From an uncultured Candidatus Saccharibacteria bacterium (GTDB lineage Bacteria > Patescibacteriota > Doudnabacteria > UBA920), in assembly GCA_964532425.1 (NCBI GenBank), contig CAZHIA010000007.1, forward strand, positions 64,008 through 128,007: 64,000 nucleotides of DNA, given 5' to 3'. The translations under genes were made by a program, and so were the position numbers. Shown here piece after piece: positions 3 through 57,764 of the stretch. The notes beneath the pieces are model-generated. The model searched no databases. It saw only the letters and a program-made list of their open reading frames with translations, and had not been told where the DNA came from. Position 1 is the first letter of the stretch, and every line of letters begins with the position of its first letter.

Positions 3-1115
3 TTTCTCTATAAGAATTTTTACGGCCATAATGTTTCCGCATCCGCGGCGTTGCTCGAAACAGCGGCTGGGGGCCGCCAGGCTGCAGTGCGGCCATCCAT
101 GCTGCCGTCCGTGCTTCGGGCATACAGCCAGCGCAAAGTTTATGAACAGTCGCCTTTGTCCAAGTGGTCATATGCGGGGTTGGTTGCCAAACAAGGATCC
201 AAAAAGGATACGGTAGATGAAGACTTTGAGTTTGGTTTCGAGGTTCTCGGGACGTTCAACCACCTGACAGAAGCGCAAGTGGTTGGCGCGGTCTGGGACC
301 TGATGGGGATGTTGGGAGTTAAGGATATTATTTTAGAGATCAACAATATCGGCAAGCCTGAGTGTCAAGCGGCGTATCAGGAAACCCTGACAGACTTTTT
401 GGCGAGCCGTAAGTATGATCTGTGCGATAGCTGCGTCGACAGCCTTTCGAGCCGGCCACTGAATGTTTTCCGCTGCTCGAATCTGGATTGCCAGGCTATT
501 GTCAGCGAAGCGCCGACGATTCTCGATTTTCTCGACCAGGAATCCCACAAGCACTTCACCAACATTTTGGAAGCTCTCGACGAGCTTGGAATTCCATACC
601 AACTAAATCCGTTTTTGGCCGGACCCGAAGGCCACAGCCAGACGAATTTTATCATCAAGTATAAGCAGAAGGACGCGACGGTGGTGGTGGGCGAGGGGGG
701 ATACCATGAAGGCCTCATGCAGTCCATATGCGGCAAGAATTTTTGCTGCTTCGGTTTTACCGGATCTTTGACTGCTATTCGGAAAATTCTGGAATTGACC
801 AAGACCACTGCAGACCGCGAGATTAAGAACGACGTATTTTTAGTGCCACTCGGGGAGCTGGCTGCCAAGAAGAGCCTGCGTCTGTTCCGTGACCTTACGG
901 GCGAACGGATTTCCGTGTATGACCATTTCGGAAATGTCGGGGTAAAGAACCAGCTCAAGCAGGCGGAAGTGTACAAAGCCCCTATAGCGCTGATTATGGG
1001 TCAGAAAGAAGCGGTTGATGAGATGGTGATACTTCGTGACGTCAAATCAGGAATGCAAGAAGTCATTTCATATGATAAAATAGTAGAAGAAGTAAAGAAG
1101 CGGCTTGGCCGCTGA
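3..1115 (+). CDS. hisS: histidine--tRNA ligase, C-terminal ~370 aa (5' end lies upstream of window)
   Basis: The frame is open to the window edge. A class II aaRS motif-3-like GEGGYHEGL...FGFTGSL and a C-terminal anticodon-binding-like domain are present. The insertion domain contains a Cys4 cluster (CDSC...C-x4-C). Confidence 0.7.
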   Translation, partial: FLYKNFYGHNVSASAALLETAAGGRQAAVRPSMLPSVLRAYSQRKVYEQSPLSKWSYAGLVAKQGSKKDTVDEDFEFGFEVLGTFNHLTEAQVVGAVWDLMGMLGVKDIILEINNIGKPECQAAYQETLTDFLASRKYDLCDSCVDSLSSRPLNVFRCSNLDCQAIVSEAPTILDFLDQESHKHFTNILEALDELGIPYQLNPFLAGPEGHSQTNFIIKYKQKDATVVVGEGGYHEGLMQSICGKNFCCFGFTGSLTAIRKILELTKTTADREIKNDVFLVPLGELAAKKSLRLFRDLTGERISVYDHFGNVGVKNQLKQAEVYKAPIALIMGQKEAVDEMVILRDVKSGMQEVISYDKIVEEVKKRLGR

Positions 1116-1206
1116 TCTGACATTTGACATGTAACATGTGACATTTGACTTTGACCTCTGCGGGTCAAATGTCAATTGTCAAAGGTCAAAGGTTTCTGAA
1201 ATTTCT
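1116..1206 (+). promoter_or_regulatory. conserved leader element, copy A (upstream of HIT gene)
   Basis: It fills the whole intergenic gap. It has TTGAC-containing 9-mer repeats (ACATTTGAC), ATGTCAC-type heptamers here in inverted orientation, and the hairpin TTTGACC...GGTCAAA. It ends GTCAAAGGTCAAAGGTTTCT before the ATG. Confidence 0.5.
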
Positions 1207-1548
1207 ATGCCCGAACAAGATTGCGTATTTTGCAACATCGTAAACCATACCCTGGACTCGGAAGTATTATTCGAGAATGACCGTATTTTCGTCATTCGCG
1301 ACATCTTGCCTAAGGCCCCGGTACACTTGCTGATTATTCCGAAAAAACACATCTTATCCATCAACCACCTTGCTGAGGAAGATTTTCCCCTCGTCGGTGA
1401 GATGATGTCCGTGGCCAAGCAGATGGGGGAGAAGTATGGAGTCTCGGAGACTGGGTACAAATTGATTTTCAACGTCGGCCGGGACGGTGGCATGGTTATT
1501 CCGCACCTCCACTTGCACCTGCTCGGGGGGAAGAATTTGGGGGAGTAA
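1207..1548 (+). CDS. HIT family hydrolase
   Basis: It carries the histidine-triad motif HLHLHLLGG near the C-terminus and has a typical HIT length and fold pattern. The start was chosen at the ATG that follows the conserved leader element. Confidence 0.8.
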   Translation: MPEQDCVFCNIVNHTLDSEVLFENDRIFVIRDILPKAPVHLLIIPKKHILSINHLAEEDFPLVGEMMSVAKQMGEKYGVSETGYKLIFNVGRDGGMVIPHLHLHLLGGKNLGE

Positions 1549-1584
1549 GGGAATAACAATAACTATAACTATAAGGATAACAAT

Positions 1585-1610
1585 AACCGCGGTGAGAGCT
1601 GCGGTTATTT
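1585..1610 (+). terminator. terminator-like hairpin after HIT gene
   Basis: The hairpin AACCGCGG-tgagagct-GCGGTT is followed by ATTT. Confidence 0.45.
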
Positions 1611-1868
1611 AGTGGAAAATTGGATAGTAATTCGGCTTAGGTTGTTCGGCAGAGCGGCGCGTATCGGCACGCGTCTTATGGCAAGCGGCTCGCTCCACGC
1701 TTCGTTTTCCAAATTCCGATACGCACCGCTCTGCCGATAAACGATTTCCGATGGTCCATTTGACCTATTTCATGCAATATAGTATAGTTATGTAAGAAAT
1801 CCTAAATCTTATATTAACTTTTAGAGCTGGAGATTAGGATTACATATTACAGAAAGAGGTGATACGTA

Positions 1869-2105
1869 ATGGTAGAGGTCAAGAAGAAAGAGAACGAATC
1901 TTTTGAAAGCCTGCTCCGCCGCTTTAATCGCAAGATCCAGCAAAGCGGTGTTTTGGTGCGCGCCCGCAAGATCCGTTTTTTTGAATCCCCGAAAAGCCGC
2001 AACCTGCAAAAGGTTGCCGCCCGCCGCAGAAGCCAGATTAAGGCCCAGAAGGAAGAGCTGAAGCGCATGGGCAAGCCGGCGCCGAGAAAATTCGGACGAA
2101 GATAG
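1869..2105 (+). CDS. rpsU: 30S ribosomal protein bS21
   Basis: It is a basic 78-aa protein with the LRRFNRK...RKxxAARR pattern typical of bS21, and it sits next to yqeY as in many genomes. Confidence 0.85.
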   Translation: MVEVKKKENESFESLLRRFNRKIQQSGVLVRARKIRFFESPKSRNLQKVAARRRSQIKAQKEELKRMGKPAPRKFGRR

Positions 2106-2222
2106 AATCATTTATAGCTAGTTCACGGATACGCGGATAGCACGGAAAACGCTGATACATTGTGCGGTTAATTCCGCGAAATTAGCGACATCCGCGTATC
2201 AGCGAGATAACTATATTATTTC

Positions 2223-2663
2223 ATGGTTACACTCCAACAAATCGAAGAAGAAATTAAAACCGCCCTCAAGGCCCGGGACCGGGTTGCTGCAGATACGCTG
2301 CGCGGCCTTAAAGTGCGCATCCAAAACGAGAAGATAGCCAAAATGCGGGACTTGTCCGACGACGAGCTAACGGCTTTGGTGAAATCCGAGATAAAACGCC
2401 GCAAGGAAGCGGCCGAGGCTTTTGTCAGTGGTAATAGGCAGGATATGGCGGACAAGGAATTGGCGGAATCGGCAATTTTGGAAAAATTCCTGCCCGAGCA
2501 GATGACTGAGGAACAGTTGAAGGCAATCATCGACCAAGCCGTTACTGAACAGGGTTACGCGTCCCAAGATTTCGGCAAAGCCATGGGATACTTGAAAGCC
2601 AAGGTGGGCCAGGCAGCCGATGGGGCTATGCTCGCCAAATTGTTGAAAGAAAAACTAAAGTAG
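2223..2663 (+). CDS. yqeY: GatB/YqeY domain protein
   Basis: It is 146 aa and shows the YqeY pattern (LKARD...L.T.R.L...I.N.EI...LSD.E....L.KE.K.R.E....F...GR.DLA.KE..E..ILE.FLP). Confidence 0.8.
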   Translation: MVTLQQIEEEIKTALKARDRVAADTLRGLKVRIQNEKIAKMRDLSDDELTALVKSEIKRRKEAAEAFVSGNRQDMADKELAESAILEKFLPEQMTEEQLKAIIDQAVTEQGYASQDFGKAMGYLKAKVGQAADGAMLAKLLKEKLK

Positions 2664-2735
2664 CTTATAGCTTTTAGCTGTCAGCTGATAGTTTTGTTTT
2701 GCTATAAGCTGGTAGCTATAGGCTAAAACCAATAC

Positions 2736-3986
2736 ATGCCCAAGGAACACTACATTACAGGACTCGATATCGGCACCCAGAACATCCGGGTCATTCAGGC
2801 CAAAGTCGCCCACGATACCGGCAATTTAAGCGTCATCGGCGCCAGTGAAGTGCCAGCAAGCGGTATCCGCAAGGGTGTTATTGTTGATATAGAAGAAGCT
2901 GTCTCATCCATTTCCCAGGCTTTGGAGCGCGTTGAGCGCATGACCGGCGTGCCAGTGGAGCGTGCGAACGTTGCCGTGGGTGGTAGCCATATTACCTCTG
3001 TCCCGAGCCATGGAGTTATAGCGGTTTCGCGCGCAGACGGAGAGATTACGGAAAATGACGTTGTCCGCGTGGTTGATGCCTCTCAAGCCATTTCCATTCC
3101 CAATAACCGGGAGGTGCTGCATGTCTTTCCGAAAACATTCATTTTGGACGGCCAGACTGGCATAAAAGATCCGCTGGGCATGACCGGCATCCGCCTGGAA
3201 GTAAACACAATCATTGTCCAAGCTGGGTTGCCGTTCGTGCGCAATTTGACCAAGGCCATAATGCAGGCGGGTTTGGAGATTGATGATCTAGTTTTAGCTC
3301 CCTGTGCGGCTTCGGAGAGCGTTTTAACCAAGCGTCAGAAAGATCTTGGCGTGGCGCTGGTGGATTTGGGTGCTGGCACGACGAGCGTGGCTGTCTACGA
3401 AGAAGGGGATTTGCTCCATACGACAGTCCTGCCGGTCGGCAGCATGCATATTACCAACGATATTGCTATTGGCCTCCGCTGCTCCATTGAGACTGCTGAA
3501 CGTGTGAAGTTGCTCTATGGACACTGTGATCCGCACCTTATCGACAAAATGGAAGAGATTGATTTGAGCAAGATAGATCCGACCGAAGAAGAGCGTGCCA
3601 TGCGCAGCTATGTGGTTGAGATTATCGAAGCCCGTCTTGAGGAGATTTTTGAACATGTTACAGCCGAGCTGAAGAAAATAGGTCGCGATGGCAAATTGCC
3701 GTCCGGCATCGTCCTGACCGGCGGAGGAAGCAAGCTGCCAGGAATTTTGGAATTTACGAAACGGAATTTGCGGCTGCCGGTTTCTTTAGGGAGGCCGCAG
3801 AATATTACGACCATCATTGACCGAGTGGATGATCCGGCGTTTGCTACGGTAACCGGCCTGGTACTGTGGGGTGGCAAGTACGCCTCGTCCGTGGGGGGAG
3901 CGCAGTTCTCCGGTATGGTCAACAAACTCATCCAAAGTCCGAACATGGAAAAAATCCGCAAGTGGTTTAAATCGTTCATGCCTTAA
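2736..3986 (+). CDS. ftsA: cell division protein FtsA
   Basis: It is an actin-fold protein with the LDIGT N-terminus and a DLGAGTT phosphate-2 motif. Its 416-aa length is typical for FtsA. Confidence 0.85.
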   Translation: MPKEHYITGLDIGTQNIRVIQAKVAHDTGNLSVIGASEVPASGIRKGVIVDIEEAVSSISQALERVERMTGVPVERANVAVGGSHITSVPSHGVIAVSRADGEITENDVVRVVDASQAISIPNNREVLHVFPKTFILDGQTGIKDPLGMTGIRLEVNTIIVQAGLPFVRNLTKAIMQAGLEIDDLVLAPCAASESVLTKRQKDLGVALVDLGAGTTSVAVYEEGDLLHTTVLPVGSMHITNDIAIGLRCSIETAERVKLLYGHCDPHLIDKMEEIDLSKIDPTEEERAMRSYVVEIIEARLEEIFEHVTAELKKIGRDGKLPSGIVLTGGGSKLPGILEFTKRNLRLPVSLGRPQNITTIIDRVDDPAFATVTGLVLWGGKYASSVGGAQFSGMVNKLIQSPNMEKIRKWFKSFMP

Positions 3987-4012
3987 AAATCCCGCAAGGG
4001 ATTTTTTATTTT
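3987..4012 (+). terminator. intrinsic terminator after ftsA
   Basis: The hairpin AATCCC-GCAA-GGGATT is followed by TTTTATTTT. Confidence 0.6.
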
Positions 4013-4043
4013 GTAGTGCAGGCCCGTGGCCTGCTCTGTCGGT
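4013..4043. repeat. REP-like palindrome family TGTAGTGCAGGCC-N-GGCCTGC
   Basis: The sequence TGTAGTGCAGGCCCGTGGCCTGCTCTGTCGG recurs at 27326-27352 (reverse complement), 51147-51179 and, partially, 52736-52760, always just downstream of a stop codon. Confidence 0.5.
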
Positions 4044-4088
4044 GTGGTTCCTACACCGCAGGGTAAGTGGTAAACCCTCGACGGTTAA

Positions 4089-4118
4089 TTGTCGATTGTG
4101 GTCCTTTTGTGCTATAAT
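4089..4118 (+). promoter_or_regulatory. putative promoter with extended -10 (TGTGCTATAAT) for the PP2C-domain gene
   Basis: The TGnTATAAT motif is at 4108-4118. The same extended -10 recurs upstream of ftsZ (9196-9204), groES, the 44309 gene and the 59897 gene. Confidence 0.45.
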
Positions 4119-4163
4119 TATGCTAAGTTTTGGTTTTGATCTGAAATAAAAACTGTCTTATTT

Positions 4164-7100
4164 ATGGGCAATGGTCACAATGGGGGTGAAAGGCCATACA
4201 TCAATGGCAATGGCTTTGATTCCTTAAAGGATTTTAAAATTACTCCTTCGGACCCTCAAGAACCCAAAGTAGAGGGTGTTTTACCGTCGGCGGAACAGCA
4301 AGTGTCAGAGGATAGAGTTGAAGCAGGTGCAGAAAACTGGATGTCGTTGATTTCCGATCAGGAACTTGAAAAGGCAGCAGGCCTGATTCACGATTTTGAC
4401 CTTAAAAATAGAAAAGCGCTCAGAGGATATGTTTATAGTCCTGAAGAATTTTGGAACGATTTTGAAGATTCGATATCCGATGAGTTTTTCAGAAATCCTG
4501 CATTCAAGAAAGCCCGGCGCGGCCTAGCTCCGCTGGCGTTACTTGATTTAGTGCGAGAAATAGTGGACGTAAACAAAAATCGGCTAACTGCCGAGTATCA
4601 ATCGACTCCTCCCATTCCGGGGTTTGTCGTTCCGGACTTGGCGGCGGCACAGGCACCGACTGCAGAACCAGCAGCGGGAGAACATGTTGAGCCTGTTCCG
4701 GGCGTGCATGTGGAAGCAGCAAGGCCTGAAGTAAAAGCTAGCGTGGAGCAGCAGAAGGCCTTCCGGGTTTTTATTAAAATATTGCAAGAAAAGCAAGCCA
4801 AGCAGGGAATTCGTACAATCGACGATAAGATCAGAAATTTTGAGGAAGCACTTCAGGAAGGATCGGTGAAAGCGGGAATGGCTGAGGATGCACTCCTGGC
4901 TATGCTCTACGAATTGTCCAGCCGCCAGCGCGAGTATGAGGAAGTGGTAGGAGCGATTGGCAATATGGATGCACCTGCGCGAAGACGACAGTTGGTCGGC
5001 CAGCTTATTACCTTGCTGGACCAGCAGTATGGCGCGGAAGCGGGTGAACAGGAAGCGGCTGAGTCCGGGCATGAGGCAGAAATCTTGCAGCAGGGAGAAA
5101 GCTACATCGTCGTACCCGGAGATCGCGGAGGCAGGAGGATGGTCGCTGATTTCCCGTCCGCGGAAGGCAGTGCGCGTTTTTCCGTTCCCGTTCCTGAATC
5201 GATGAACCTTGATACGCCTGATCAGGCGAATGATTTTTACAATTTTGTATATGAATTCCTTCTTGCCAATGTCCCTCCGGGCGGCCGGGGGGAAATTAGC
5301 CGTTTGAGCCGCGATGAGTACCGCAAGCTGGTGCACGCCTGGAATGTCCGCAAGCAGCCGCAAGCGAGACCAGTCCCGGCAAAACCGGCAGTAGTGCGGC
5401 TCATGCCTACTGCCCCAAAGCCCCCGCAAGCTGCAGAAGCGACGAGAGATCGGTTTGGTACGGCTAACGAAATTTATATGGAGATCAAGCCGAGGGTTGT
5501 GAAAATTCCTCAGGGGACGATCGGCGTATTTGTTGACAAAGGGGTTGAACGCGACTACCAGGAAGATCGTGCCGTCATCAACTCAGAAAAACTGGCCTTT
5601 GCTTCAGTTGATGGTATGGGCGGGATGGGAGAAAAGGGGTCTGGAGCATGGGCGGCACAGATGGCGGCTGAATGGTTCCATCGCGGTTTTGAGCAAGGCT
5701 TGTCATTCGAAGAGATTCAAGACCGGATCCACACTGCCCTGAAGGACTACGAAAAAGATAAGGACAAGAAAGGGGCCGGGATCTGTTATATTGCTGCCCG
5801 CATCGAGGGAAAAATGTTGAAGGGTGCCCAGGCGGGAGATGTCCGGCTGTTCGTTATTCGGAATGGTGTGATTGCATTTACTACCAAAGATCAGAATAAT
5901 GCAAACATTGGCCGTCCGAATGAAGTGACGAATGCAGTCAGTGGCGAGGATCGCGGCGAAACGATTGCATTCGAGTTTCCGCTTGAGCCTGGCGACCGGG
6001 TCGTTATGGCTTCCGACGGTCTTACCGGCAATCTAAGCAACGAACAGGTGGCAGCTTTGGTTCAGTACAAGAACACCGAGGAAGCCTTAGATGTTTTGCG
6101 GACCGAATCTGCACGCTTGATGGGTCAAAAAGACGGCAAGAAGGACAATATCAATGTCGTCATTTTTGATTACAACCCCGTTCAGCCGCCAGCTCCGGAA
6201 CCTGCTCCTGCAGCCGGACCGAAAAAGTTGGTGCCTGGCAAGATCAATAAACCTGCACCGACTTCTGCCCCTGTTGTGGCAGCCGTGGAAGCAGTCCCCA
6301 AAGCGGCTCCGGCAGAAACCGAACAACAGGCGAGCGAGAGGCTTTCGCGTGCAGCTGAACAATGCATTGCCGTTTTGCAGCAGGTGGGCAGGGAGCTACA
6401 AAGTGGCTTACCTTTCATGGAAGGTAGTGACCGGGTTGATCGTGCATTGGAAGAATGGGTGGCAGCTCGGGGTGATTTTCATAAGCATACACAAGCTGTC
6501 CGTAATTTGATTAGAGAACAGTCAAAAAATATCGAAGAAGCCTGGAAGGTTGTGGAAGAAACTATTAAGAAGAAAGAGCGGGAAGAGAAGCGGGTAGCTT
6601 CTGAGGCTGTGCCGGTTGAGCCTGCTGTTACTGGCGGCGAAGCTCCGGCTGATGGCGAGCCAAAAAAGAATGGCGACAAACTACCGCGCAATATCCGGGA
6701 TCTGATCCGTGACAACCAGCTTTCGCCCGATGAATTGACCTCGTTCTGCGAAAAGAGGTCGCTTGATCCTATTGCAACCTTCAAAAAAGCCCTAGACTAC
6801 GCCGGGTGCCCGGATGATCTGATTCAAGAGGCATCTTCAATGGACAAGTCTGAGGAAGCGCTTGCCCACTTATTTGCTCGGGTTATGGGCCTGCGCCGCG
6901 CCTCGTTCAGATCACACATGGGTCGTGGCGGCGAGGATGTTACGGACGTCGATGCTAAGACCCAAAATAATTTATATAACAATCTAGCTTCCCAATACCG
7001 AAGAGTGTGGCAGGAATATAAGGAGCGAGTACTGCCAGTTCATAGTCCGGAGCCTCCACCTCTTCATGAAGCCGTGCCGCCCGAACCTCCTAAACCACCG

Positions 7101-7460
7101 GAAAAAAGGAAGGAGCACGTGGAAAACTCCGGAGTCCTGCCGAACCGGGCGCAGTACGAAATATTTCCGGCAAGATCGCGTTTGGAGATTAATCTGCCGG
7201 CAAATGCTAGCCTGACGGAAACAATAGTGCAGCTGCTTCGGGAACATCCGGAATTAATCTCAGTATTCGGAGGCACGGGCGATCCCGCAGAGGCGGCACA
7301 GAAATGGTTTGCCGAGTACGCTGCCAGTTACGGCAGGCGGGGAGAGAAGGCGACGCAGTTTGATCGGAGTATCAGCGGCCTCGAAGTCAGTCTGGTCGGC
7401 GGCAAAGCCAGGGTCAACAGACTTTATAGCGCAAAAATTAGGAAACCAACAATTAGTTAA
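4164..7460 (+). CDS. large multidomain protein with central PP2C-type Ser/Thr phosphatase domain
   Basis: PPM motifs are present: DYQED, FASVDGMGGMG, VMASDGLTG and DNINVVIFD. The N- and C-terminal regions are long and Pro/Ala/Glu-rich with no recognisable domains. Confidence 0.6.
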   Translation: MGNGHNGGERPYINGNGFDSLKDFKITPSDPQEPKVEGVLPSAEQQVSEDRVEAGAENWMSLISDQELEKAAGLIHDFDLKNRKALRGYVYSPEEFWNDFEDSISDEFFRNPAFKKARRGLAPLALLDLVREIVDVNKNRLTAEYQSTPPIPGFVVPDLAAAQAPTAEPAAGEHVEPVPGVHVEAARPEVKASVEQQKAFRVFIKILQEKQAKQGIRTIDDKIRNFEEALQEGSVKAGMAEDALLAMLYELSSRQREYEEVVGAIGNMDAPARRRQLVGQLITLLDQQYGAEAGEQEAAESGHEAEILQQGESYIVVPGDRGGRRMVADFPSAEGSARFSVPVPESMNLDTPDQANDFYNFVYEFLLANVPPGGRGEISRLSRDEYRKLVHAWNVRKQPQARPVPAKPAVVRLMPTAPKPPQAAEATRDRFGTANEIYMEIKPRVVKIPQGTIGVFVDKGVERDYQEDRAVINSEKLAFASVDGMGGMGEKGSGAWAAQMAAEWFHRGFEQGLSFEEIQDRIHTALKDYEKDKDKKGAGICYIAARIEGKMLKGAQAGDVRLFVIRNGVIAFTTKDQNNANIGRPNEVTNAVSGEDRGETIAFEFPLEPGDRVVMASDGLTGNLSNEQVAALVQYKNTEEALDVLRTESARLMGQKDGKKDNINVVIFDYNPVQPPAPEPAPAAGPKKLVPGKINKPAPTSAPVVAAVEAVPKAAPAETEQQASERLSRAAEQCIAVLQQVGRELQSGLPFMEGSDRVDRALEEWVAARGDFHKHTQAVRNLIREQSKNIEEAWKVVEETIKKKEREEKRVASEAVPVEPAVTGGEAPADGEPKKNGDKLPRNIRDLIRDNQLSPDELTSFCEKRSLDPIATFKKALDYAGCPDDLIQEASSMDKSEEALAHLFARVMGLRRASFRSHMGRGGEDVTDVDAKTQNNLYNNLASQYRRVWQEYKERVLPVHSPEPPPLHEAVPPEPPKPPEKRKEHVENSGVLPNRAQYEIFPARSRLEINLPANASLTETIVQLLREHPELISVFGGTGDPAEAAQKWFAEYAASYGRRGEKATQFDRSISGLEVSLVGGKARVNRLYSAKIRKPTIS

Positions 7461-7471
7461 TTTTAAGCACT

Positions 7472-8611
7472 ATGTTTTACTCCATATTGCCAAATGAAGC
7501 CCGGGATGCAACCAGGAGCGCGCCAGTCGAGCGCCAACCGGAAGGTTTTGATCCCGAAAAAGCCCTCGACACTCCAGGGTTCGCTGCTTTTTATACGGAG
7601 GTCTTAAACAAGCGTGGGGAACAACTGGATCCAGAAGAGGTCGACCGGGCTGACATGGAAACATGCTTTAAGGCTTTTCAGGCGAAAAAGACCATTATTG
7701 CCGGCTATGAAAAGATCTATCGCGACGATTTTAAAGAGCGGTTTGGCGTCGTGATGAACAAGAAGGACCTGGAAGCCGTGTCTCGCGTCATCGAAGAAAA
7801 GATCAAGGAAGAACCGGGTGAAGTTCTGCAGATGCAGGCTAATTTGGAGACCATGGTCCAGAACGCCCGGTTCATGGATCAAAAACGGAAGAATCTTGCG
7901 AATTATTACAGTAAAGAGGAACTGCAAAACCGCCGGGTTGAGCGCGAGGAAGCTCTGCGCCGGGAGGAGGAAGGCTTGCGGGAGCGAGAGAAGCGGGGTT
8001 TTTGGGGATGGGAGATTGGCTCAAAAACAAAGCGTGGTTACCGCAAGGATATTAAAAAGATCGAGGGTGAGTTGGTGGCAATAGAGCATGCTTTGGCTGT
8101 CCATGCTAACTATGAGATAAGCAAGCGGGAACTGGAAGATGCACGAATGGAAGTGTTCGAGATGGCGGAAATGGCCGATGAAGTGCATGAGAAAGCTAAA
8201 GAGGTGCTGCTGAAGGAATTTGCCGATCTGAATAAACCGGTAGACCGGTTACATGGGTTGCTCGATAAGCTCGACAAAATAGAAAAAGATGCAGACAGTA
8301 CAAACCGTCCGTTGCTCGAATTAGATGAGATCGAGAATGTCCGCACCGAGCTTCAGGATACAATTGAGGATAAAGTCACCGAGGAGCTGCGGAAGGCTAT
8401 AAAAAGCATTCCCGACACTTCATCCTTAACGCTGAAGCGGGTTAACATGGCCCTTGCCAGTTTTATGAAGCGCCAGGAACGAGTGGGTATGAAGAAAGGG
8501 GAGGAAGCCAAGGAATGGGTCAAGCAAATGCTCAGTGAAGTGGCTCAAGAGCCGGGGGTTTCCGACTCGAAGAAATTCTTATTGGCTTATGTGCGTTCAA
8601 AAATAAGCTAA
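7472..8611 (+). CDS. hypothetical charged coiled-coil protein
   Basis: It is a 379-aa ORF rich in E/K/R heptad-like segments and has no recognisable domain. It starts 12 nt after the upstream stop. Confidence 0.45.
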   Translation: MFYSILPNEARDATRSAPVERQPEGFDPEKALDTPGFAAFYTEVLNKRGEQLDPEEVDRADMETCFKAFQAKKTIIAGYEKIYRDDFKERFGVVMNKKDLEAVSRVIEEKIKEEPGEVLQMQANLETMVQNARFMDQKRKNLANYYSKEELQNRRVEREEALRREEEGLREREKRGFWGWEIGSKTKRGYRKDIKKIEGELVAIEHALAVHANYEISKRELEDARMEVFEMAEMADEVHEKAKEVLLKEFADLNKPVDRLHGLLDKLDKIEKDADSTNRPLLELDEIENVRTELQDTIEDKVTEELRKAIKSIPDTSSLTLKRVNMALASFMKRQERVGMKKGEEAKEWVKQMLSEVAQEPGVSDSKKFLLAYVRSKIS

Positions 8612-8616
8612 CGACC

Positions 8617-8895
8617 ATGGACACAAACAAATTTTACGAATTGCTCAAAGCCGGCAAACTCAACGAGGCCAAGGCTTTGCTGGAAGAATACTTCAAGCAG
8701 AAGCCGTCCGAGGAAGAAAAGGCTGCTGTCATGGTGGCCGTGACCGACGCATATGTGCGGGCGAAGAATGAGATCGACCAGGCATATATTCAGGAACTTG
8801 ATGAGGCCGAGCGGCTGCTTAAAGAGATTAAAGCCGACGAGCAAAAGCTTGAAGACCAGCAAAAGCTCGACGAAGCCAGGAAGAACATCGGTTAA
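8617..8895 (+). CDS. hypothetical small coiled-coil protein
   Basis: It is a 92-aa helical, charged ORF that starts 6 nt after the upstream stop and is followed by an intrinsic terminator. Confidence 0.4.
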   Translation: MDTNKFYELLKAGKLNEAKALLEEYFKQKPSEEEKAAVMVAVTDAYVRAKNEIDQAYIQELDEAERLLKEIKADEQKLEDQQKLDEARKNIG

Positions 8896-8912
8896 AAATA
8901 GGATCGTTTAAA

Positions 8913-8946
8913 AAATACCTTCGTGAATACGAAGGTATTTTTTTGT
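8913..8946 (+). terminator. intrinsic terminator
   Basis: The hairpin AAATACCTTCG-tgaat-ACGAAGGTATTT is followed by a T run. Confidence 0.65.
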
Positions 8947-9176
8947 ATTTTATAGTAGCGAAGCTCTTAAATATCAGTTAGTACATAGGTATCAGGTAAA
9001 TCTTTTTATACCCCCTCCCCCTCACTATGTTCGGGTACTCCCCCTAATAGGGGGAGAGTGGTCGCAAAAATTCGGTGTTCCTTCCCTTCTAGGGAAGGTG
9101 TCATCCTCCCTGGCGGATGACGGAAGGGTATCTGAAGTGTGTACTGCGGGTTGGTTCCTCCCAATGTATCATGGCC

Positions 9177-9204
9177 TTCCCAGACCCGGCCATTATGCTA
9201 TAAT
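9177..9204 (+). promoter_or_regulatory. putative ftsZ promoter (TTCCCA ... TGCTATAAT)
   Basis: An extended -10 TGCTATAAT lies about 175 nt upstream of the ftsZ start within a hairpin-rich leader. Confidence 0.4.
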
Positions 9205-9379
9205 GAAACCGCACCTCTTGCCCAAAACGCTGCTTTTCAGTAGTATATAGGAAGAGAACTTCTTTTATCTAAAATATAATTTACCCTCCCAGCCATCCGC
9301 CCCGTGCGGACCCGTCTCGCCTTGCGAGCCGAGGCGGATAGACAGGGGAAACACCAGAGAATGGGTGTAGAGGGCGGAC

Positions 9380-10573
9380 ATGAAGAAACCTATGGAAGTT
9401 AAGCCAAAAATCGAATCGTTTGCACGCATCAAAGTGTTAGGAATTGGCGGCGGCGGCACGAACGCTATAAACCGGATGACTGAGCTAGGTATTAAAGGGG
9501 TTGAGTTTGTTGCGATCAATACCGATGCCCAGGCCTTGCATAACAACCAGGCAGACCGCAAAGTCCATATTGGCAAGAATATTACCAAGGGTTTGGGTTC
9601 CGGTATGAATCCGGAGCTCGGGCGCCAGGCGGCAGAGGAGTCAGTGGAAGAACTGGAAGAGGTGGTCGATAATGCCGACATGGTGTTCATTACCTGCGGA
9701 CTTGGCGGCGGTACCGGTACCGGCGCGGCTCCGACCGTGGCCGAATTGGCAAAGAACAAAGGTATACTGACGGTCGCCGTGGTAACCAAGCCGTTCACGT
9801 TTGAAGGCAGTAAGAGAAAGGAAGTGGCTGAAGTTGGCTATGACAATCTCAAGGATAAGGTGGATGCTATTATTTCCATCCATAACGACCGCATCCTCCA
9901 GATCATCGACAAGAAGACTTCGCTCATTGACGCTTTTAAAACAGTCGACGAGGTGCTACGCCAGGGTATTTCCGGAATTTCAGATCTCATCACTTCGCAT
10001 GGTGTAGTGAATGCCGACTTTGCCGACGTTCGCAGCATTATGCAAGATGCCGGCACGGCTCTTATGGGTATCGGCCGGGGCAGCGGCGAAAATCGCGCCG
10101 AAGAAGCAGCCAAGCAGGCTATTAATTCTCCGCTTTTGGAACTGGCTATCGATGGCGCCAAGGGCGTATTGTTCAACATTACCGGCGGCCCGAATTTGGG
10201 AATGTTCGAGATCGACGAGGCTGCCAAAGTTATTACCAAGAGTATCGATCCGGATGCCAAGGTCAAGTTTGGCGCGGTTATTGACGAGAACATGGGTGAC
10301 GATCTTCGCATTACGGTTATTGCCACCGGCTTTGACGAGGCGAACAAGCGTCCCAATCTGTTGTCAATGCCTACAGCTGACGAGGCCAAGAAGCCGGTCT
10401 ACCAGGAACCGAAGTACACGCCGCCTCCGGTAGAAATTCGAAAGCCGTTGTTTAATCCGAAACCAGTAGAACCGATCCAGCCCATGCAGCCGCGCAACGA
10501 CGAAGACGCTGCCTCATCTTCTCCGGACGACGAGTTGGATATACCGGCGTTCATTAGAAAGAAAATGAAATAA
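9380..10573 (+). CDS. ftsZ: cell division protein FtsZ
   Basis: It has the tubulin signature GGGTGTGAAP and the GIGGGGTNAINRM, NTDAQAL motifs. The C-terminal tail ends DIPAFIRKK. Confidence 0.9.
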   Translation: MKKPMEVKPKIESFARIKVLGIGGGGTNAINRMTELGIKGVEFVAINTDAQALHNNQADRKVHIGKNITKGLGSGMNPELGRQAAEESVEELEEVVDNADMVFITCGLGGGTGTGAAPTVAELAKNKGILTVAVVTKPFTFEGSKRKEVAEVGYDNLKDKVDAIISIHNDRILQIIDKKTSLIDAFKTVDEVLRQGISGISDLITSHGVVNADFADVRSIMQDAGTALMGIGRGSGENRAEEAAKQAINSPLLELAIDGAKGVLFNITGGPNLGMFEIDEAAKVITKSIDPDAKVKFGAVIDENMGDDLRITVIATGFDEANKRPNLLSMPTADEAKKPVYQEPKYTPPPVEIRKPLFNPKPVEPIQPMQPRNDEDAASSSPDDELDIPAFIRKKMK

Positions 10574-16373: not shown

Positions 16374-17849
16374 TCAGGTAGAAAGTTGGCCTTGCGTGGA
16401 GGGTTGTTCCATCACATATTTGATGAGCAGCGGCCAGACGAGTGTGGCATCGGTGTGAACTTCGGCGAACAGCCCGTGTGGATCCATTTTCCCCCATGAC
16501 ATGTTTTCTGAGTATGAGCAGCTGCCCAGGTTCCCATACCATGGCTGGTCCGGGGCGATACGGCAGCCGTAAGCATAGAGGAGCGGATCGCGCCAGGCCC
16601 CCAGGCGTTTTTTAATCAGGTCTTCGGCAACCGGGTCGTTCTGCGCGTTGTTGCGCGGCACGCCGCCGCCGATGCTGATAATGCCGGTGCGACTCAGGTT
16701 CAGTCTCGCCTCGAGCCGGTGCAGCGTATCAAATTCGGGATTGATGAAAATTCCTCGCTGTCCCTGCTGGCGCTGCAGCATGTTATAGGTCATTACATCG
16801 TTGCCGATCTCGCTGTCCGTGAATGCTGGAACATATATTGGCACGTTGCACTCATAGGCGGACCGGAGGATAGAGGGGTGACCAGGGTAATGCTCGGACA
16901 GATACTGTCCAATGAGTCGGAGAAAACTATGCGTTGACAGCACACTGCCATCAGGAATGTTTTCAAGCACGGCGCGCAGGACTTCTTCGATGTGGTCGAA
17001 GTTTGTCTCCGGCTCTAACGTATCGGTCACCCGGTTTAAGCGCAGGCTGGCCAGCAATTGGTCGCTGTGAGCCGGGTTGTGCTTGTAATGCCTCAGACCA
17101 GTGCCGGCAATTAACCCGTGGGCCATGAGCGCCCCGGTCGAGAATATTGCGTTCACCATGCCGAGCTCGATCATGTCCCGAATGACGAGCGAGAACTGTG
17201 CCACGGTCATAGCGCCGCTCAGCGTCAGGGTTTTGTGGCAAGCAGGATCCTTGATCATGCCAGTGAGCGCGGCTGCTGCCTGTTTTATTTCACCTGCCAG
17301 GCCGGTTTCGGGAAGCTGGTCCACGAATTCAGTAGCCGTGATCTTGGTCCCTTTCAACCGTTCAGAGAGGGCAGCGGAGATGCAAGGGATGACAAAGTTC
17401 GGGTCGGCAAAGACCGCGTTTGGGAAGTGCCCGTCCTTAATTTGACCGTTCCGACACATGCCGTACTGGTTGATGAACAGGATTGGCAGCTCCGGGCGTT
17501 TTTTTACGAAGTTCTGAATATGGTTATTTAGGGGACCAATGATCACGAGGGGTTCAGTGTAGTTCAGATCGATTGTTCCTTGTGGCAGAAGGACGGTCTG
17601 CACCCAACCCTCCTCTACCATCGCGTCTGTGAGCAATGCATAGGTTTGGGGGTCGGTGTTGTCCGTCAGTATTGCGTGGGGGCTTCGGGATTCCTGAATC
17701 CATGCCATCCATGTATGGGCCGCCTCGCCAATCATGCGGGCGCCGAACGAGCAATGGGCCATGCCGGCCACAATTTTGCCGACAGAATCGCACTTCCGCA
17801 GGTCGAGCGGGGAGAGGGGCTCCAGGTTCAGTGGGATTTTATCATACAT
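16374..17849 (-). CDS. deoxyhypusine synthase family protein (DHS-like)
   Basis: From memory, the C-terminal region matches DHS: TGIISIGGGVPRNN against DHS TGMIILGGGVVKHH, and ENMSWGKMD...DATLVWPLL against EAVSWGKIR...DASLVFPLL. The start was set at MYDK, which has a GGAGGA RBS. Confidence 0.6.
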   Translation of the reverse strand: MYDKIPLNLEPLSPLDLRKCDSVGKIVAGMAHCSFGARMIGEAAHTWMAWIQESRSPHAILTDNTDPQTYALLTDAMVEEGWVQTVLLPQGTIDLNYTEPLVIIGPLNNHIQNFVKKRPELPILFINQYGMCRNGQIKDGHFPNAVFADPNFVIPCISAALSERLKGTKITATEFVDQLPETGLAGEIKQAAAALTGMIKDPACHKTLTLSGAMTVAQFSLVIRDMIELGMVNAIFSTGALMAHGLIAGTGLRHYKHNPAHSDQLLASLRLNRVTDTLEPETNFDHIEEVLRAVLENIPDGSVLSTHSFLRLIGQYLSEHYPGHPSILRSAYECNVPIYVPAFTDSEIGNDVMTYNMLQRQQGQRGIFINPEFDTLHRLEARLNLSRTGIISIGGGVPRNNAQNDPVAEDLIKKRLGAWRDPLLYAYGCRIAPDQPWYGNLGSCSYSENMSWGKMDPHGLFAEVHTDATLVWPLLIKYVMEQPSTQGQLST

Positions 17850-18513
17850 ACTATTATTCCTCCTTGTATGACAGTTTAGTATGCCGAAAAAGGTGGGGGT
17901 TGGCAAGCCCAGGCGCAATCCGATTGTGCCTGGGCAGGTCATCGTTCGTTGTTTGGTTATAGGGTTCTGTGGCCGGCCTTATTGATGATCACCATCGAGG
18001 ATAAACCTGTTCAAAACGATTAATTGAGTACTCAGGCGTGATCTTCCTTAAGAAAGCTGGTCCTCGATGGTGACCATCATCTGTCTCATGACTCAAATCT
18101 TACCCTGTCGCTATAGGTTTGCTCAGCAGGCTAAACTATGGTCAATTAATAAATCTGTGGATAAAAAACAACAATATCAGAAATTGCTAGCAATTCCGTC
18201 ATTTCTGTTAGGATACTAGCTATAGTATTATGAAGGAGGTAAATATTACTACATATGGTGAATTCGCCATATGGAGGGTGAGAAACAAAAGCACGTATTA
18301 GTAAGCAATAATTGTCCCCAGGAGGTCGCTTTTTCTGCCAAAAAAGCCGTATTTTTTTACGCTAAAATAGGGGTGGAAATTATAGAGTCTGAGCCGTCGG
18401 ATTAACTCCGCGGCGAAGGCAACACTCCGGAAAGGGGAGGCAGGAGCCAACGGTGACGGTGGAAGGGGAAAACCCCTTTCGGTTCTCGCCGGGGTTTCCC
18501 CCTCCAATGCATT

Positions 18514-27204: not shown

Positions 27205-27482
27205 TCAGTATCCTCCTGAAACTCTTGGCTATCCCGAAGAGTACCGTATTCTGCCTGCCCGGTCAATGGTTATTTAAAAAAGCCTTTCAGCAACAAGTGA
27301 CCTGTAACACTAAACATTTACAAAGGGCAGGCCACGGGCCTGCACTACAGTCACAGATCAAAGGTTAATCATCAAATGTCTCTTGGAGTATTTGTTTAGG
27401 ATTTCGGATTTGAAATCGCGGGCGCCTGTCGGCGGCCCCTACACAGCAAAGTATGTCCATCGAAATGTGTTATGATATGGGC

Positions 27483-51151: not shown

Positions 51152-51498
51152 TGCAGGCCATTGGCCTGCTCTTGTGCGGACAATATAACAGGAGGAACGT
51201 TATGCGTTAAAAAGCCAGCGTAGTTCAAGAAACTACATTTGAATAAAACGGCGGCGAAAAGGTTTTACAGGTAGACCTTGCGGAAAGCCGGAAATTTCCG
51301 CTCAATATGATCTGTCCGTGGCGGGTAGCGCTGGGAGAGCATGCTCTCCCTTCTCTTCAGAGTTCATTTTCATCTTTTGGCGTCATTCTGAGCCGAGGCA
51401 TCCGAGGCGAAGAATCTCTCATCGAAAGTGAATTGTGAAGAGAAGGAATTCTCGTCAGACTTAGGGTCTGATTATATCGAATCAAGGAGGCATTTGCC

Positions 51499-52470: not shown

Positions 52471-52934
52471 AAACATGTGTGCGGTCACCTTCGGTGACCG
52501 CCTCTCTTCCGAACTCGTTTATGCGGGTTGGGAAGAGGGGATGATATTGATCGAAATTCTGTGCAGTGCAGGCCCGCTTCGCTATCGCTTGAGCGAGGCG
52601 AGCCCTTGGCCTGCTCCCCGTGTCATTGCGATTTTAGAGGTAAATTCCCATGATGAAGCGATCTAAACCTCGTGTTAGGTAAGATTGCTTCGTCGTTCGG
52701 CTGCACTCACTTCTCGCAATGACAAACAGCGGGTAATGTAGTGCAGGTCCTCTGACTACGCACAAGGCTACGTCGTACTAGTCGGCCTGCCAGTGTAGGG
52801 GCGGATAGTATCCGCCCGAAAGAAGGGAAGATAATATCTTCCCCTTACATAACGCAATAGATTTATTGCCAGAATTGAAAACTTAAAGAATTGAGTTTAT
52901 AATTCTGTCAGTATATAAACCTGTAGGGGGATTC

Positions 52935-55604: not shown

Positions 55605-57764
55605 ATGCGGCAAAAATTAAATATAGGAATTTTACTTACGCTCGGCGCGATTTTGGGATCGTGCTTTTTTTATACCCAAAGGGCACATGCCGGGGCGCTG
55701 CCGGTCTATATAAGCCAGGTGCAGATTACCGGCGGCTCCGGCCATACGAATGATGATTTCGTGGAATTGTTCAATCCGAATTCTCAAGCGGTGAATTTGA
55801 AAGGATACCGCTTGGTCAAGCGGACCGCAGCTGGGACTGTCGACACCCTGATCAAATCCTGGACGAGTGATACCATAATACCGCCGTTCAGTTTTTATTT
55901 ATGGGCTAACACGGGCTGTGCGAATCTTCCGTACCCTGCCGATGGAACTACGTCGGGAACACTGTCCGATGATAACGGCGTTGCCGTGCGGTTTGGAGCC
56001 AGCGACAGCGGAGCGTTGATCGACAGTATTTCCTGGGGCAAGGCGAATAATACGTTCCGGAATGTATCAGCGCAGAACCCAGGTGCGGGGCTGGCCTTGC
56101 AGCGCCAAGACCTATATACCGAGAACTCAAATTTTTCTATAGCAGCTTCGCACCCGCGAAACAGTTCCGTTGCGGACAAGCCGGCACCACCATCCAGCGG
56201 CGGTACAGCCACTTCCACCCCGCAGTCAGAAACTCCGGCGGCGGTTACGGTGGAAGGAACCGAATATAAGAATAAAGCCGAAGGCATAGTCTTCTCCGAG
56301 CTGCTGGTGAACCCGGAAGGGGAGGATGGCGGGCAGGAAGTTGTCGAACTCGAGAACACCGGCCTGGAAGCGGCGGATCTTCGCAAATGGATTTTGCGGG
56401 ACGGAAGCGGTACGTCGACGGTCGATTTTACGATTGGATCTGTCCAGCTGCTGCCAGGCGATGTGGCAACCATTACCCTTCCTGCCGGGTCATTTGCATT
56501 AGATAATCAGGGTGATGCTATCGCGTTGCTCTACCCAGATGGCAGCCAGGCGGACGCACTCCAGTACAAAGGACCAGCACCAGAGAGATTGAGTTATCAA
56601 AAGTATAAAGACGGCTGGGTCTGGTCGTTGCCAAGCCTTGGTCGAAAAAATTTTACTAAAACCTATATAGGGCAATCGGGGCTTGGCGTGCGTATCAGCG
56701 AGGTGCTAGCAAATCCCGTGGGGGAGGATGAAGGTAAGGAATGGGTAGAGCTACTCAATTTGGGGGAGGAGGCAATCCCTTTAGCTGGTTATCGTCTTGA
56801 TGATGCCGGTACTACGCTTGGGCCAAGTAATCACGCGGTGGCTCTGGATGACCAGGGAGTCCTTTTACCCGGCGAGTTTTTGGTCGTGGCCATACCTGAG
56901 GATGCGTTCCAGCTGAAAAACGACCATGGAGAGCTGCGCTTGTTTGATGCACAGCAGAAAATGGCCGATGCGGTAACGTATGAAGAAGCGCCGGAAGGCA
57001 AAAGCTACGCAAGAAGCGCGGACGGCGCGTGGGCTTACGGCATTCCTACCCCCGGAGCCGCCAGTCTGGTTGATCAGCCACTTTCCGGGGCTTTCATTTC
57101 CGAACTATTGCCGAATCCTGGTGAGGGTAGGGAAGAATTCATGGAATTGGGCAATGCTTCTTTGGAGCCGGTACTCTTAAAGGATCTGGTTCTCGGGTCT
57201 GACAGCCAGCGAAAAGCCCTCGAAAAGGACGTGTTGTTGCAACCTGGGCAGTTATTCGTATTCGGGGCGTCTGAGCTTCCATTTTCTTTGCGCAATTCGG
57301 GCGGCCGTATCGAGCTTTTCGATCAATACGGCAGACGGCTTTCCGCGGTTGATTACCCTGCTGCTCCGGCGGGGCAGTCGTATTCCCGGGACAGTGGCGG
57401 AAGTTTTTTTTGGACCGATGTGCCTACGCCCGGGACAGCGAATACGATCATTCAGGCGGCAGCCGTGGAAAAGGAACCGGCCGCAACCGTACCAGCAAGC
57501 AGGTCTGTGTCCGAAGCAACAGTATACAAGCGCTTGTACGCTCAGCAGCAGGAGCTGAATGCCAGATTGGAAGGGGAGCTGGCTGCTCTGCAACAATCCG
57601 TGGCTCTGTTGGGGCCATCGGAGAACCGTATCGTAGAACAGGTTGTCCCCACGTCTGATACAATGCAAACCGCGCCGACGCAACATCGCGAGGGTTGGTT
57701 GTACGGGATTATCTCCTTATTGGCGCTGGTGTTAGCCATATTACTCTATCGGCGAATTGCCTGA
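55605..57764 (+). CDS. secreted surface protein with four lamin-tail domains (LTD) and C-terminal membrane anchor
   Basis: It has a signal peptide, four repeats of the LTD signature (I/V)SE(L/V)..NP.G.D...E(F/W)VEL.N, and a C-terminal TM. Confidence 0.7.
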   Translation: MRQKLNIGILLTLGAILGSCFFYTQRAHAGALPVYISQVQITGGSGHTNDDFVELFNPNSQAVNLKGYRLVKRTAAGTVDTLIKSWTSDTIIPPFSFYLWANTGCANLPYPADGTTSGTLSDDNGVAVRFGASDSGALIDSISWGKANNTFRNVSAQNPGAGLALQRQDLYTENSNFSIAASHPRNSSVADKPAPPSSGGTATSTPQSETPAAVTVEGTEYKNKAEGIVFSELLVNPEGEDGGQEVVELENTGLEAADLRKWILRDGSGTSTVDFTIGSVQLLPGDVATITLPAGSFALDNQGDAIALLYPDGSQADALQYKGPAPERLSYQKYKDGWVWSLPSLGRKNFTKTYIGQSGLGVRISEVLANPVGEDEGKEWVELLNLGEEAIPLAGYRLDDAGTTLGPSNHAVALDDQGVLLPGEFLVVAIPEDAFQLKNDHGELRLFDAQQKMADAVTYEEAPEGKSYARSADGAWAYGIPTPGAASLVDQPLSGAFISELLPNPGEGREEFMELGNASLEPVLLKDLVLGSDSQRKALEKDVLLQPGQLFVFGASELPFSLRNSGGRIELFDQYGRRLSAVDYPAAPAGQSYSRDSGGSFFWTDVPTPGTANTIIQAAAVEKEPAATVPASRSVSEATVYKRLYAQQQELNARLEGELAALQQSVALLGPSENRIVEQVVPTSDTMQTAPTQHREGWLYGIISLLALVLAILLYRRIA

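Follow-up and report, generated by a model that had tools for sequence, protein, structure and literature searches.

Three genes between ftsA and ftsZ in a Candidatus Doudnabacteria genome: a probable hypervariable accessory island with a species-specific PP2C protein

The ftsA-ftsZ pair is among the most conserved gene adjacencies in Bacteria. To our knowledge, almost nothing is known about the regulation of division in bacteria of the Candidate Phyla Radiation (CPR). What, then, is the nature of the approximately 5.4 kb that separate ftsA from ftsZ in a member of Candidatus (Ca.) Doudnabacteria? The analyzed stretch, hereafter the window, comprises 64,000 nucleotides of contig CAZHIA010000007.1 (assembly GCA_964532425.1). 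An earlier interpretation made from the sequence alone (the sequence-only reading) had described three open reading frames (ORFs) wedged between the two genes and had seen in them a phosphatase scaffold at the division site. The six-frame ORF list bears out the three genes, and Pfam confirms FtsA and FtsZ as their flanks:

2736-3986, + strand: ftsA, 416 aa (Pfam FtsA 3.7e-36, SHS2_FTSA 5.3e-29), left flank of the island
4164-7460, + strand: ORF of the PP2C protein, 1098 aa, cytoplasmic, built of several modules around a central PP2C domain
5466-6188, + strand: PPM/PP2C catalytic core of this protein, approximately aa 435-675 (AlphaFold2 (AF2), Foldseek and motif alignment)
7472-8611, + strand: second island gene, 379 aa, charged and presumed helical, starting 11 nt past the stop of the 1098-aa gene
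8617-8895, + strand: third island gene, 92 aa, helical, starting 5 nt past the stop of the 379-aa gene
9380-10573, + strand: ftsZ, 397 aa (Pfam Tubulin 1.7e-47, FtsZ_C 5e-36), right flank of the island

Spaced by 11 and 5 nt, preceded by an extended -10 element and followed by a strong terminator, the three genes make up a compact, self-contained operon that has a promoter and a terminator of its own, in agreement with the sequence-only reading. All three show native-looking GC content and codon usage. On balance, one clade of Ca. Doudnabacteria probably has a hypervariable island of accessory genes, and we regard the 5.4 kb as the form it takes in this species. Such an island would be inherited within the clade, while its content would turn over fast by divergence, replacement and loss.

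This interpretation is based on a comparison with 80 species-representative loci retrieved with FtsZ, which belong to Ca. Doudnabacteria or to unclassified or mislabelled metagenome-assembled genomes (MAGs) of Patescibacteria and are referred to by L numbers. Their FtsZ proteins are 66-88% identical to that of the window. Window proteins were mapped on the relatives by tblastn, and the sequence examined spans ±10 kb of each locus. In 44/80 loci, ftsA and ftsZ are adjacent, 4-233 bp apart; ftsZ there follows a conserved block HisRS-HIT-S21-YqeY-FtsA, of which ftsA is the last gene and which is common to the window and its relatives. The inserted state was assigned to 33/80 loci, with no ftsA within the 2.1-10 kb examined upstream of ftsZ, apart from three of them in which it is visible 7.2 kb (L021), 8.4 kb (L012) and 9.9 kb (L004) upstream. 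The remaining loci (3/80) were too short to classify. As a side observation, the dcw cluster (for division and the cell wall) does not include ftsA-ftsZ here; the block upstream across Doudnabacteria is HisRS-HIT-S21-YqeY(GatB-like)-FtsA (window 51-3986 and most related loci).

In a neighbour-joining tree of this single protein (320 FtsZ residues), nearly all inserted loci fall into one clade, which includes the window. Within this clade, only L010 and L018 have adjacent genes, and L010 is the nearest neighbour of the window. The island at the ftsA/ftsZ junction is a clade trait. Because the closest relative L010, and also L018, lacks it over the ±10 kb examined, the island appears to be dispensable and not required for division. 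The functional link to division that the sequence-only reading had suggested is thus weakened by the adjacent state in 44/80 loci, L010 included; what stands on the other side is that the island is kept in one clade. The 1098-aa PP2C protein occurs in no other ftsA-ftsZ island.

What the islands of the sister genomes contain was determined by clustering the upstream ORFs and scanning them against Pfam. Directly upstream of ftsZ, 18 loci encode members of an ORFan family that reach 1300-1780 aa. These giants are rich in E and K and showed neither a Pfam match nor a transmembrane segment. A DUF5663 protein of approximately 105 aa usually stands before each of them, and a second family, of about 1000 aa, is accompanied by a small protein related to these partners (hhalign 95-96%). 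The more conspicuous members of the islands are the following:

L007:4825-9549, L015:4618-9597, L020:4892-9784, L021:5162-9847, L060:4257-9602 and 13 further loci: ORFan giants
L002:8522-9655, L003:5713-7233, L008:919-2604 and 8 further loci, - strand: T4SS_pilin proteins
L019:9161-9761, L022:9216-9960, L027:1380-1980, L034:9295-9931: MNT-HepT pairs
L022:2863-4701, - strand: PP2C_2 protein of 613 aa, unrelated to the window PP2C (24.2 bits against a cut-off of 24)
L022:4861-6078, - strand: kinase-like protein adjoining the PP2C_2 protein (Pkinase 21.4 bits, below the cut-off)

Divergence among the giants is pronounced: their median identity is 27% across genome pairs in which the FtsZ core is 88% identical, and they are 21-53% identical in pairs with 92-97% FtsZ-core identity. 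The T4SS_pilin proteins, found in 11 loci on the minus strand, carry a VirB2-like C-terminal domain and transmembrane segments. In four genomes, the genes next to ftsZ on its upstream side form a toxin-antitoxin pair of an MNT nucleotidyltransferase and HepT. One island representative is an AbiEii protein, and the PP2C_2 and kinase-like pair of L022 also lies upstream of ftsZ. Two families of membrane proteins directly follow ftsA in L012; since the same two begin the available sequence in L007, L015 and L020, ftsA likely lies just beyond 10 kb in these three loci.

Within ±10 kb of the loci, the island families are confined to the ftsA-ftsZ interval, with the exception of a single small family, which two loci have downstream as well. 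Gene order is partly common between genomes, and this is suggestive of vertical descent combined with fast divergence more than of repeated insertion. Among the 66 island representatives, no integrase, transposase or phage family of Pfam was detected, and the island proteins gave no PADLOC defence match above noise level (E = 0.007 and 5e-4, over short stretches). A literature search on DUF5663 and on ftsA/ftsZ gene neighbourhoods in CPR bacteria returned nothing relevant.

The locus thus shares several features with known variable islands and hotspots, namely fixed conserved flanks, variable content, a patchy occurrence among close relatives and toxin-antitoxin modules in some versions. Unlike classical islands, however, it lies inside the ftsA-ftsZ pair, has native composition and lacks an integrase, a tRNA and direct repeats; its content is dominated by giant charged ORFans without transmembrane segments, in partly conserved order.

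The first of the three window genes encodes the most readily interpretable protein. Its central part was described in the sequence-only reading as a bona fide PP2C core, and this is confirmed by score, motifs and fold. Residues 476-654 pass the Pfam gathering score of PF07228 (SpoIIE; 33.0 bits against a cut-off of 25), while PF13672 (20.2 against 24) and PF00481 (18.6 against 20.3) stay just under their cut-offs. The motifs QED466, DGMGG483, GD558, SDGL617 and DNINVV661 are present. In alignments with 9-13 relatives, ED, DGMGG, GD, SDG and DN are invariant or nearly so, and a close look at the metal-binding positions found E467/D468, D483, D559, D618 and D661/N662 all kept. The nearest relatives of the core are 36-46% identical and their alignment defines a subfamily, in which the window protein deviates at one place: SDGLWDN reads SDGLTGN, so that W-D is replaced by T-G. 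Taken together, sequence and structural model make an active, Mn2+/Mg2+-dependent enzyme the most likely identity of the domain, namely a Ser/Thr phosphatase of the PstP/Stp1/tPphA type.

The structural model was calculated with AF2 from an alignment that included nine PP2C homologs; it covers the protein in full length and reaches a pLDDT above 90 over approximately aa 435-675. Foldseek searches of this core against the PDB returned tPphA, PppA, PstP and Stp1 as top matches (probability 1.00; E = 1e-12 to tPphA, PstP and Stp1), with target TM-scores of 0.73-0.83 in the top 15; SpoIIE structures follow at ranks 35 and 40, behind the PstP/Stp1 type. Going by this ranking, the core is of the PstP/Stp1 type despite its Pfam label SpoIIE. 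It shares the fold (approximately aa 435-675) and the motifs ED, DGMGG, GD, SDG and DN with PstP, Stp1, tPphA and PppA, but, in contrast to PstP, it is located mid-protein between two ORFan arms and has no transmembrane anchor. A further comparison is offered by the large PP2C protein SpoIIE, which in Bacillus subtilis binds FtsZ at the septum formed during sporulation: both are large multi-region PP2C proteins, PF07228 is the best Pfam model, and a positional link to ftsZ exists. In contrast to SpoIIE, the hydropathy scan revealed no N-terminal multi-pass membrane domain in the 1098-aa protein, and outside the PP2C core there is no homology, including the central regulatory and FtsZ-binding region. 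The resemblance would therefore be at most an architectural analogy and not membership.

The arms on both sides of the core, about 430 aa at the N-terminus and 420 aa at the C-terminus, are of a different kind. The sequence-only reading had found no recognisable domains in them, and the searches agree: neither Pfam nor NCBIfam matched the flanks, and when 1.84 billion representatives were searched exhaustively with HMMER, all 1144 matches fell on residues ~440-675, with no homolog for residues 1-440 and 690-1098. The full-length protein is a singleton that matched only itself in a word-indexed search of 5.8 billion proteins, and two scans of metagenome contigs with the 379-aa and 1098-aa proteins gave no matches. 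PHROGs matches were restricted to the PP2C core (phage family phrog_5650). When compared with all 90 island protein clusters by hhalign, the N- and C-terminal arms gave nothing above 30%; no internal repeats and no similarity to the 379-aa or 92-aa protein were found in them. The AF2 model, which is of low confidence in the arms, places short helical modules at 194-289, 325-396, 720-814, 842-907 and 1010-1055 (pLDDT 60-79), separated by long disordered Pro/Ala/Glu-rich linkers of low confidence. No transmembrane segment was detected by the hydropathy scan. In such an architecture, the arms would tether the enzyme to partners.

Long extensions are not peculiar to this protein, as several members of the PP2C subfamily carry them (704, 910, 1337 and 1667 aa), mutually unrelated in sequence. 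These extended relatives reside in accessory regions rich in ORFans or in toxin-antitoxin genes, and in the five genomic contexts of PP2C relatives that were inspected, no ftsZ lies nearby. One relative (P0009, 910 aa) is found in a co-directional run of seven ORFan genes of 154-1013 aa (L087, 430-13749). This run is followed by an 828-aa DUF8128/DUF87/TrwB-like ATPase, and the region may be a secretion- or conjugation-like cluster. Another relative (P0020) sits in a toxin-antitoxin-rich region. In the 64-kb window, a motif scan revealed no Hanks-kinase motif and hence no partner kinase there.

The two smaller proteins differ from the PP2C protein in their distribution. Residues 23-201 of the 379-aa protein resemble the N-termini of 680-700-aa proteins encoded just upstream of ftsZ in L003, L004 and L011 (blastp 4e-5 to 3e-4, hhalign 93%), with the common motif ALxTPGFxxF. 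In the same position, weak homologs of the 92-aa protein were identified: 94-aa proteins in L003 and L011 (blastp 4e-5; hhalign 79%), which come after the 680-700-aa proteins, and a further homolog in L004 detected by tblastn. Because remote homologs occupy the same position in these three genomes, the 379-aa/92-aa pair represents the inherited, positionally conserved and older part of the island, and the PP2C gene its species-specific part. Otherwise, the 379-aa protein matched no Pfam, NCBIfam, PADLOC or PHROG family, and a profile search with its family retrieved the protein itself and one 493-aa protein. The 92-aa protein has no Pfam match, scores below 30% probability against the DUF5663 cluster (PF18908; hhalign) and has no fold match in the PDB with E below 1 (Foldseek; best E = 2.9).

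Both proteins are highly charged (35-41% D+E+K+R), and no transmembrane segment is predicted in either. They had been regarded as coiled-coil proteins. A helical structure is supported for the 92-aa protein, whose AF2 model (pLDDT 95) is all-helical with helices at 3-11, 15-27 and 32-91, the last one 60 residues long; a coiled coil is not established, since a crude heptad scan gave scores no better than shuffles. The further suggestion that the 92-aa protein is ZapA-like was not upheld. It shares with ZapA and ZapB its small size, its acidic nature and a long C-terminal helix that could oligomerise; however, there is no Pfam match at E up to 0.1, with no signal of ZapA, ZapB, SepF or DivIVA, and neither ZapA nor ZapB appears among the Foldseek matches. 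ZapA has an alpha/beta head, whereas the 92-aa model is all-alpha with a TPR-like N-terminal hairpin. The protein could conceivably play a ZapB-like role as an oligomerising helix. We infer that the 379-aa and 92-aa proteins could self-associate through long helices, and they may be partners of the 1098-aa protein.

How the island is embedded in the transcription of ftsA and ftsZ was deduced from promoter and terminator calls, which are consensus matches throughout:

3985-4006, + strand: intrinsic-terminator-like hairpin after ftsA (9-bp stem, 4-nt loop, T run)
4015-4037, no strand assigned: palindrome GCAGGCC-N3-GGCCTGC resembling repetitive extragenic palindromic (REP) elements, a repeated element
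4089-4118, + strand: putative promoter of the island operon (TTGTCG, 18 nt, TGCTATAAT; -10 at 4110-4118)
8910-8943, + strand: strong intrinsic-terminator-like hairpin closing the island operon (perfect 15-bp stem, 4-nt loop, T run)
9177-9204, + strand: putative ftsZ promoter (TTCCCA, 16 nt, TGCTATAAT; -10 at 9196-9204)
9211-9379, + strand: inferred 5' untranslated region of ftsZ, approximately 170 nt, deduced from the position of the -10 element

The sequence-only reading had placed a terminator and a REP hairpin after ftsA, a second terminator before the ftsZ leader and a separate promoter in front of ftsZ, and counterparts to all of these were found. The terminator-like hairpins lie at 3985-4006 and 8910-8943, and the ftsZ promoter is represented by TGCTATAAT at 9196-9204. 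The palindrome at 4015-4037 is a true repeated element: exact-stem copies of GCAGGCC-N3-GGCCTGC occur in the window at 4018-4034, 27327-27343 and 51153-51169, together with a degenerate copy at 52598-52614, and six window matches with at most two mismatches compare with 0.28 expected. A 23-nt identical match was also found in the Doudnabacteria genome L026 (15570-15592). By contrast, the 430-nt hairpin-rich ftsZ leader does not hold. From the promoter, the leader measures approximately 170 nt; its fold is no more stable than that of shuffles (z = -1.28), the same is true for the spacer upstream of it (z = -1.39), and Rfam returned sub-threshold noise for the region upstream of ftsZ.

The 9-mer TGCTATAAT is evidently a generic element, the dominant extended -10 promoter element of this genome, because six copies (4110, 9196, 14380, 31007, 44274 and 59853), all on the plus strand, are present in the window against 0.29 expected. 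The idea that the two copies at 4110 and 9196 are direct repeats flanking the island was rejected for the same reason (generic extended -10, 6 copies per 64 kb). In most relatives, a TGnTAnAAT site lies 40-270 nt upstream of ftsZ, irrespective of whether the island is present.

The 13-mer TTTGTGCTATAAT is located 127 nt past the ftsA stop in the window, where it precedes the 1098-aa gene. In the island-free loci L010 and L018, the identical 13-mer is found 88-106 nt past the ftsA stop, there preceding ftsZ, and a terminator hairpin equivalent to that of the window follows ftsA in both (spacers of 186-233 bp). Going by these matches, the island would sit between the ancestral, post-ftsA promoter of ftsZ and ftsZ itself. 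Since L010 and L018 already have the terminator and the identical TTTGTGCTATAAT in their ftsA-ftsZ spacer, the transcriptional uncoupling of ftsA and ftsZ appears to be older than the island. The claim that both genes are uncoupled is thus correct insofar as they form separate units, but it is not a result of the insertion. In L010, TTTGTGCTATAAT is tandemly duplicated between ftsA and ftsZ with a 16-nt period (9895-9925), which might be the scar left by a rearrangement at this junction, or the seed of one. Another feature of this region is an ORF that lies opposite the 5' end of ftsZ in antisense orientation (window 9265-9798, - strand) and recurs at the equivalent position in most loci; its conservation is most simply a by-product of ftsZ conservation, and not that of a gene.

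Some observations weigh against a mere accessory island. The whole clade keeps it exactly here, on the strand of ftsZ and often within a few hundred bp of it, so that it could be functional, and upstream of ftsZ in L022, a second, unrelated PP2C gene has a kinase-like gene as its neighbour. The marks of a classical island (mobility gene, direct repeat, compositional anomaly) are missing, and the only sequence common to both junctions is the generic 9-nt TGCTATAAT. Furthermore, 30/33 inserted loci were assigned from shared island families and the tree, with no ftsA seen in flanks of at most 10 kb, and the neighbour-joining tree of FtsZ alone does not settle between loss in L010 and L018 and several gains. 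The first two of these observations also speak for the proposal of the sequence-only reading, according to which FtsZ, FtsA or both are bound by the PP2C protein and its two helical neighbours and divisome components are dephosphorylated, much as PstP, PhpP or SpoIIE act at the septum; the products of sister islands would in that case be Z-ring-associated proteins specific to the lineage. In Actinobacteria and Firmicutes, division is under the control of PP2C phosphatases and Hanks kinases, and SpoIIE is a protein that binds FtsZ. Moreover, the position between ftsA and ftsZ is kept in approximately 33 species, the 379-aa/92-aa pair lies beside ftsZ in three other genomes, and the window proteins are charged and free of transmembrane segments, with the 92-aa protein and the 1098-aa arms modelled as helical, like many FtsZ-associated proteins. 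Nevertheless, we consider this proposal unlikely. Division proceeds without any island in the closest relative and in 43 other genomes, the PP2C gene is confined to this one genome, and no Hanks-kinase motif accompanies it in the window. The proteins show no similarity to ZapA, ZapB, SepF, EzrA, DivIVA or the non-catalytic part of SpoIIE. Divergence as extreme as that of the giants would be unusual for partners of FtsZ, itself 88-97% conserved, and toxin-antitoxin modules occupy the same slot. A more far-reaching version is in our opinion distinctly improbable: here the interval as such would encode fast-evolving Z-ring scaffolds, consisting of giant charged proteins and ~100-aa adaptors, and would have been remodelled in this species with a PP2C domain for Ser/Thr phospho-control of division, which would make it a divisome module specific to a lineage of CPR bacteria. 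The link of the island to FtsA and FtsZ is positional only, and a role in division is guilt by association.

In another explanation, the islands carry cargo for conflict or host interaction: genes for effectors, immunity or defence that evolve fast and may be connected with a VirB2-pilin/T4SS-like apparatus, with the ftsA-ftsZ gap as a safe and well-expressed landing site. The giant PP2C protein would then be one of these effectors or a regulator. The arms-race-like divergence of the giants, the T4SS_pilin genes in 11 islands, and the MNT-HepT and AbiEii modules are consistent with this. The same applies to the surroundings of the PP2C relatives (P0009 among ORFans beside a DUF87/TrwB-type ATPase, P0020 in a toxin-antitoxin-rich region) and to the match of a phage family, phrog_5650, to the PP2C core. 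However, the island of the window itself has no pilin, toxin-antitoxin or ATPase gene. Window proteins and giants gave no PADLOC defence match beyond noise and have no signal peptide or transmembrane segment, and native composition goes along with the lack of an integrase or transposase. We therefore rate this explanation, too, as a minor candidate. Finally, the source is a MAG and the flanks of the 1098-aa protein have no homologs, which could point to a chimeric assembly or to a decayed, non-functional ORF. Misassembly is unlikely because an independent Logan assembly (run SRR11567520, 12-kb contig) has the identical order from HisRS to FtsZ. In addition, chance would not be expected to leave an ORF of 3.3 kb uninterrupted at ~51% GC, the neighbour genes are matched in GC content and codon usage, and long inserts are found here in 33 other genomes, which makes an artefact highly improbable.

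If the hypervariable accessory island that we favour is a neutral hotspot, approximately 33 species of Doudnabacteria put up with hypervariable genes over 5 to more than 10 kb within ftsA-ftsZ, among them genes of ORFan proteins of 1300-1780 aa. It would then show that in this lineage ftsA and ftsZ are transcribed as independent units and would provide a defined and easily located place for studying the origin and turnover of giant orphan proteins in reduced genomes. Should the island proteins touch FtsZ or FtsA, they would represent new division factors. For the window itself, the finding is more modest: a species-specific PP2C fusion protein linked to division by position alone.

The other large ORFs of the window encode housekeeping or surface proteins. 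At 16374-17942 (- strand), a protein of the deoxyhypusine synthase family was found, with its DS domain at 207-509 and an N-terminal extension of approximately 200 aa without a family match. Two probable surface proteins are encoded further downstream, one of 719 aa with three lamin-tail domains (55605-57764) and one of 961 aa with TIG/He_PIG Ig-like domains (59897-62782). The gene of the latter has an atypical codon usage, with a correlation of 0.34 with the housekeeping set.

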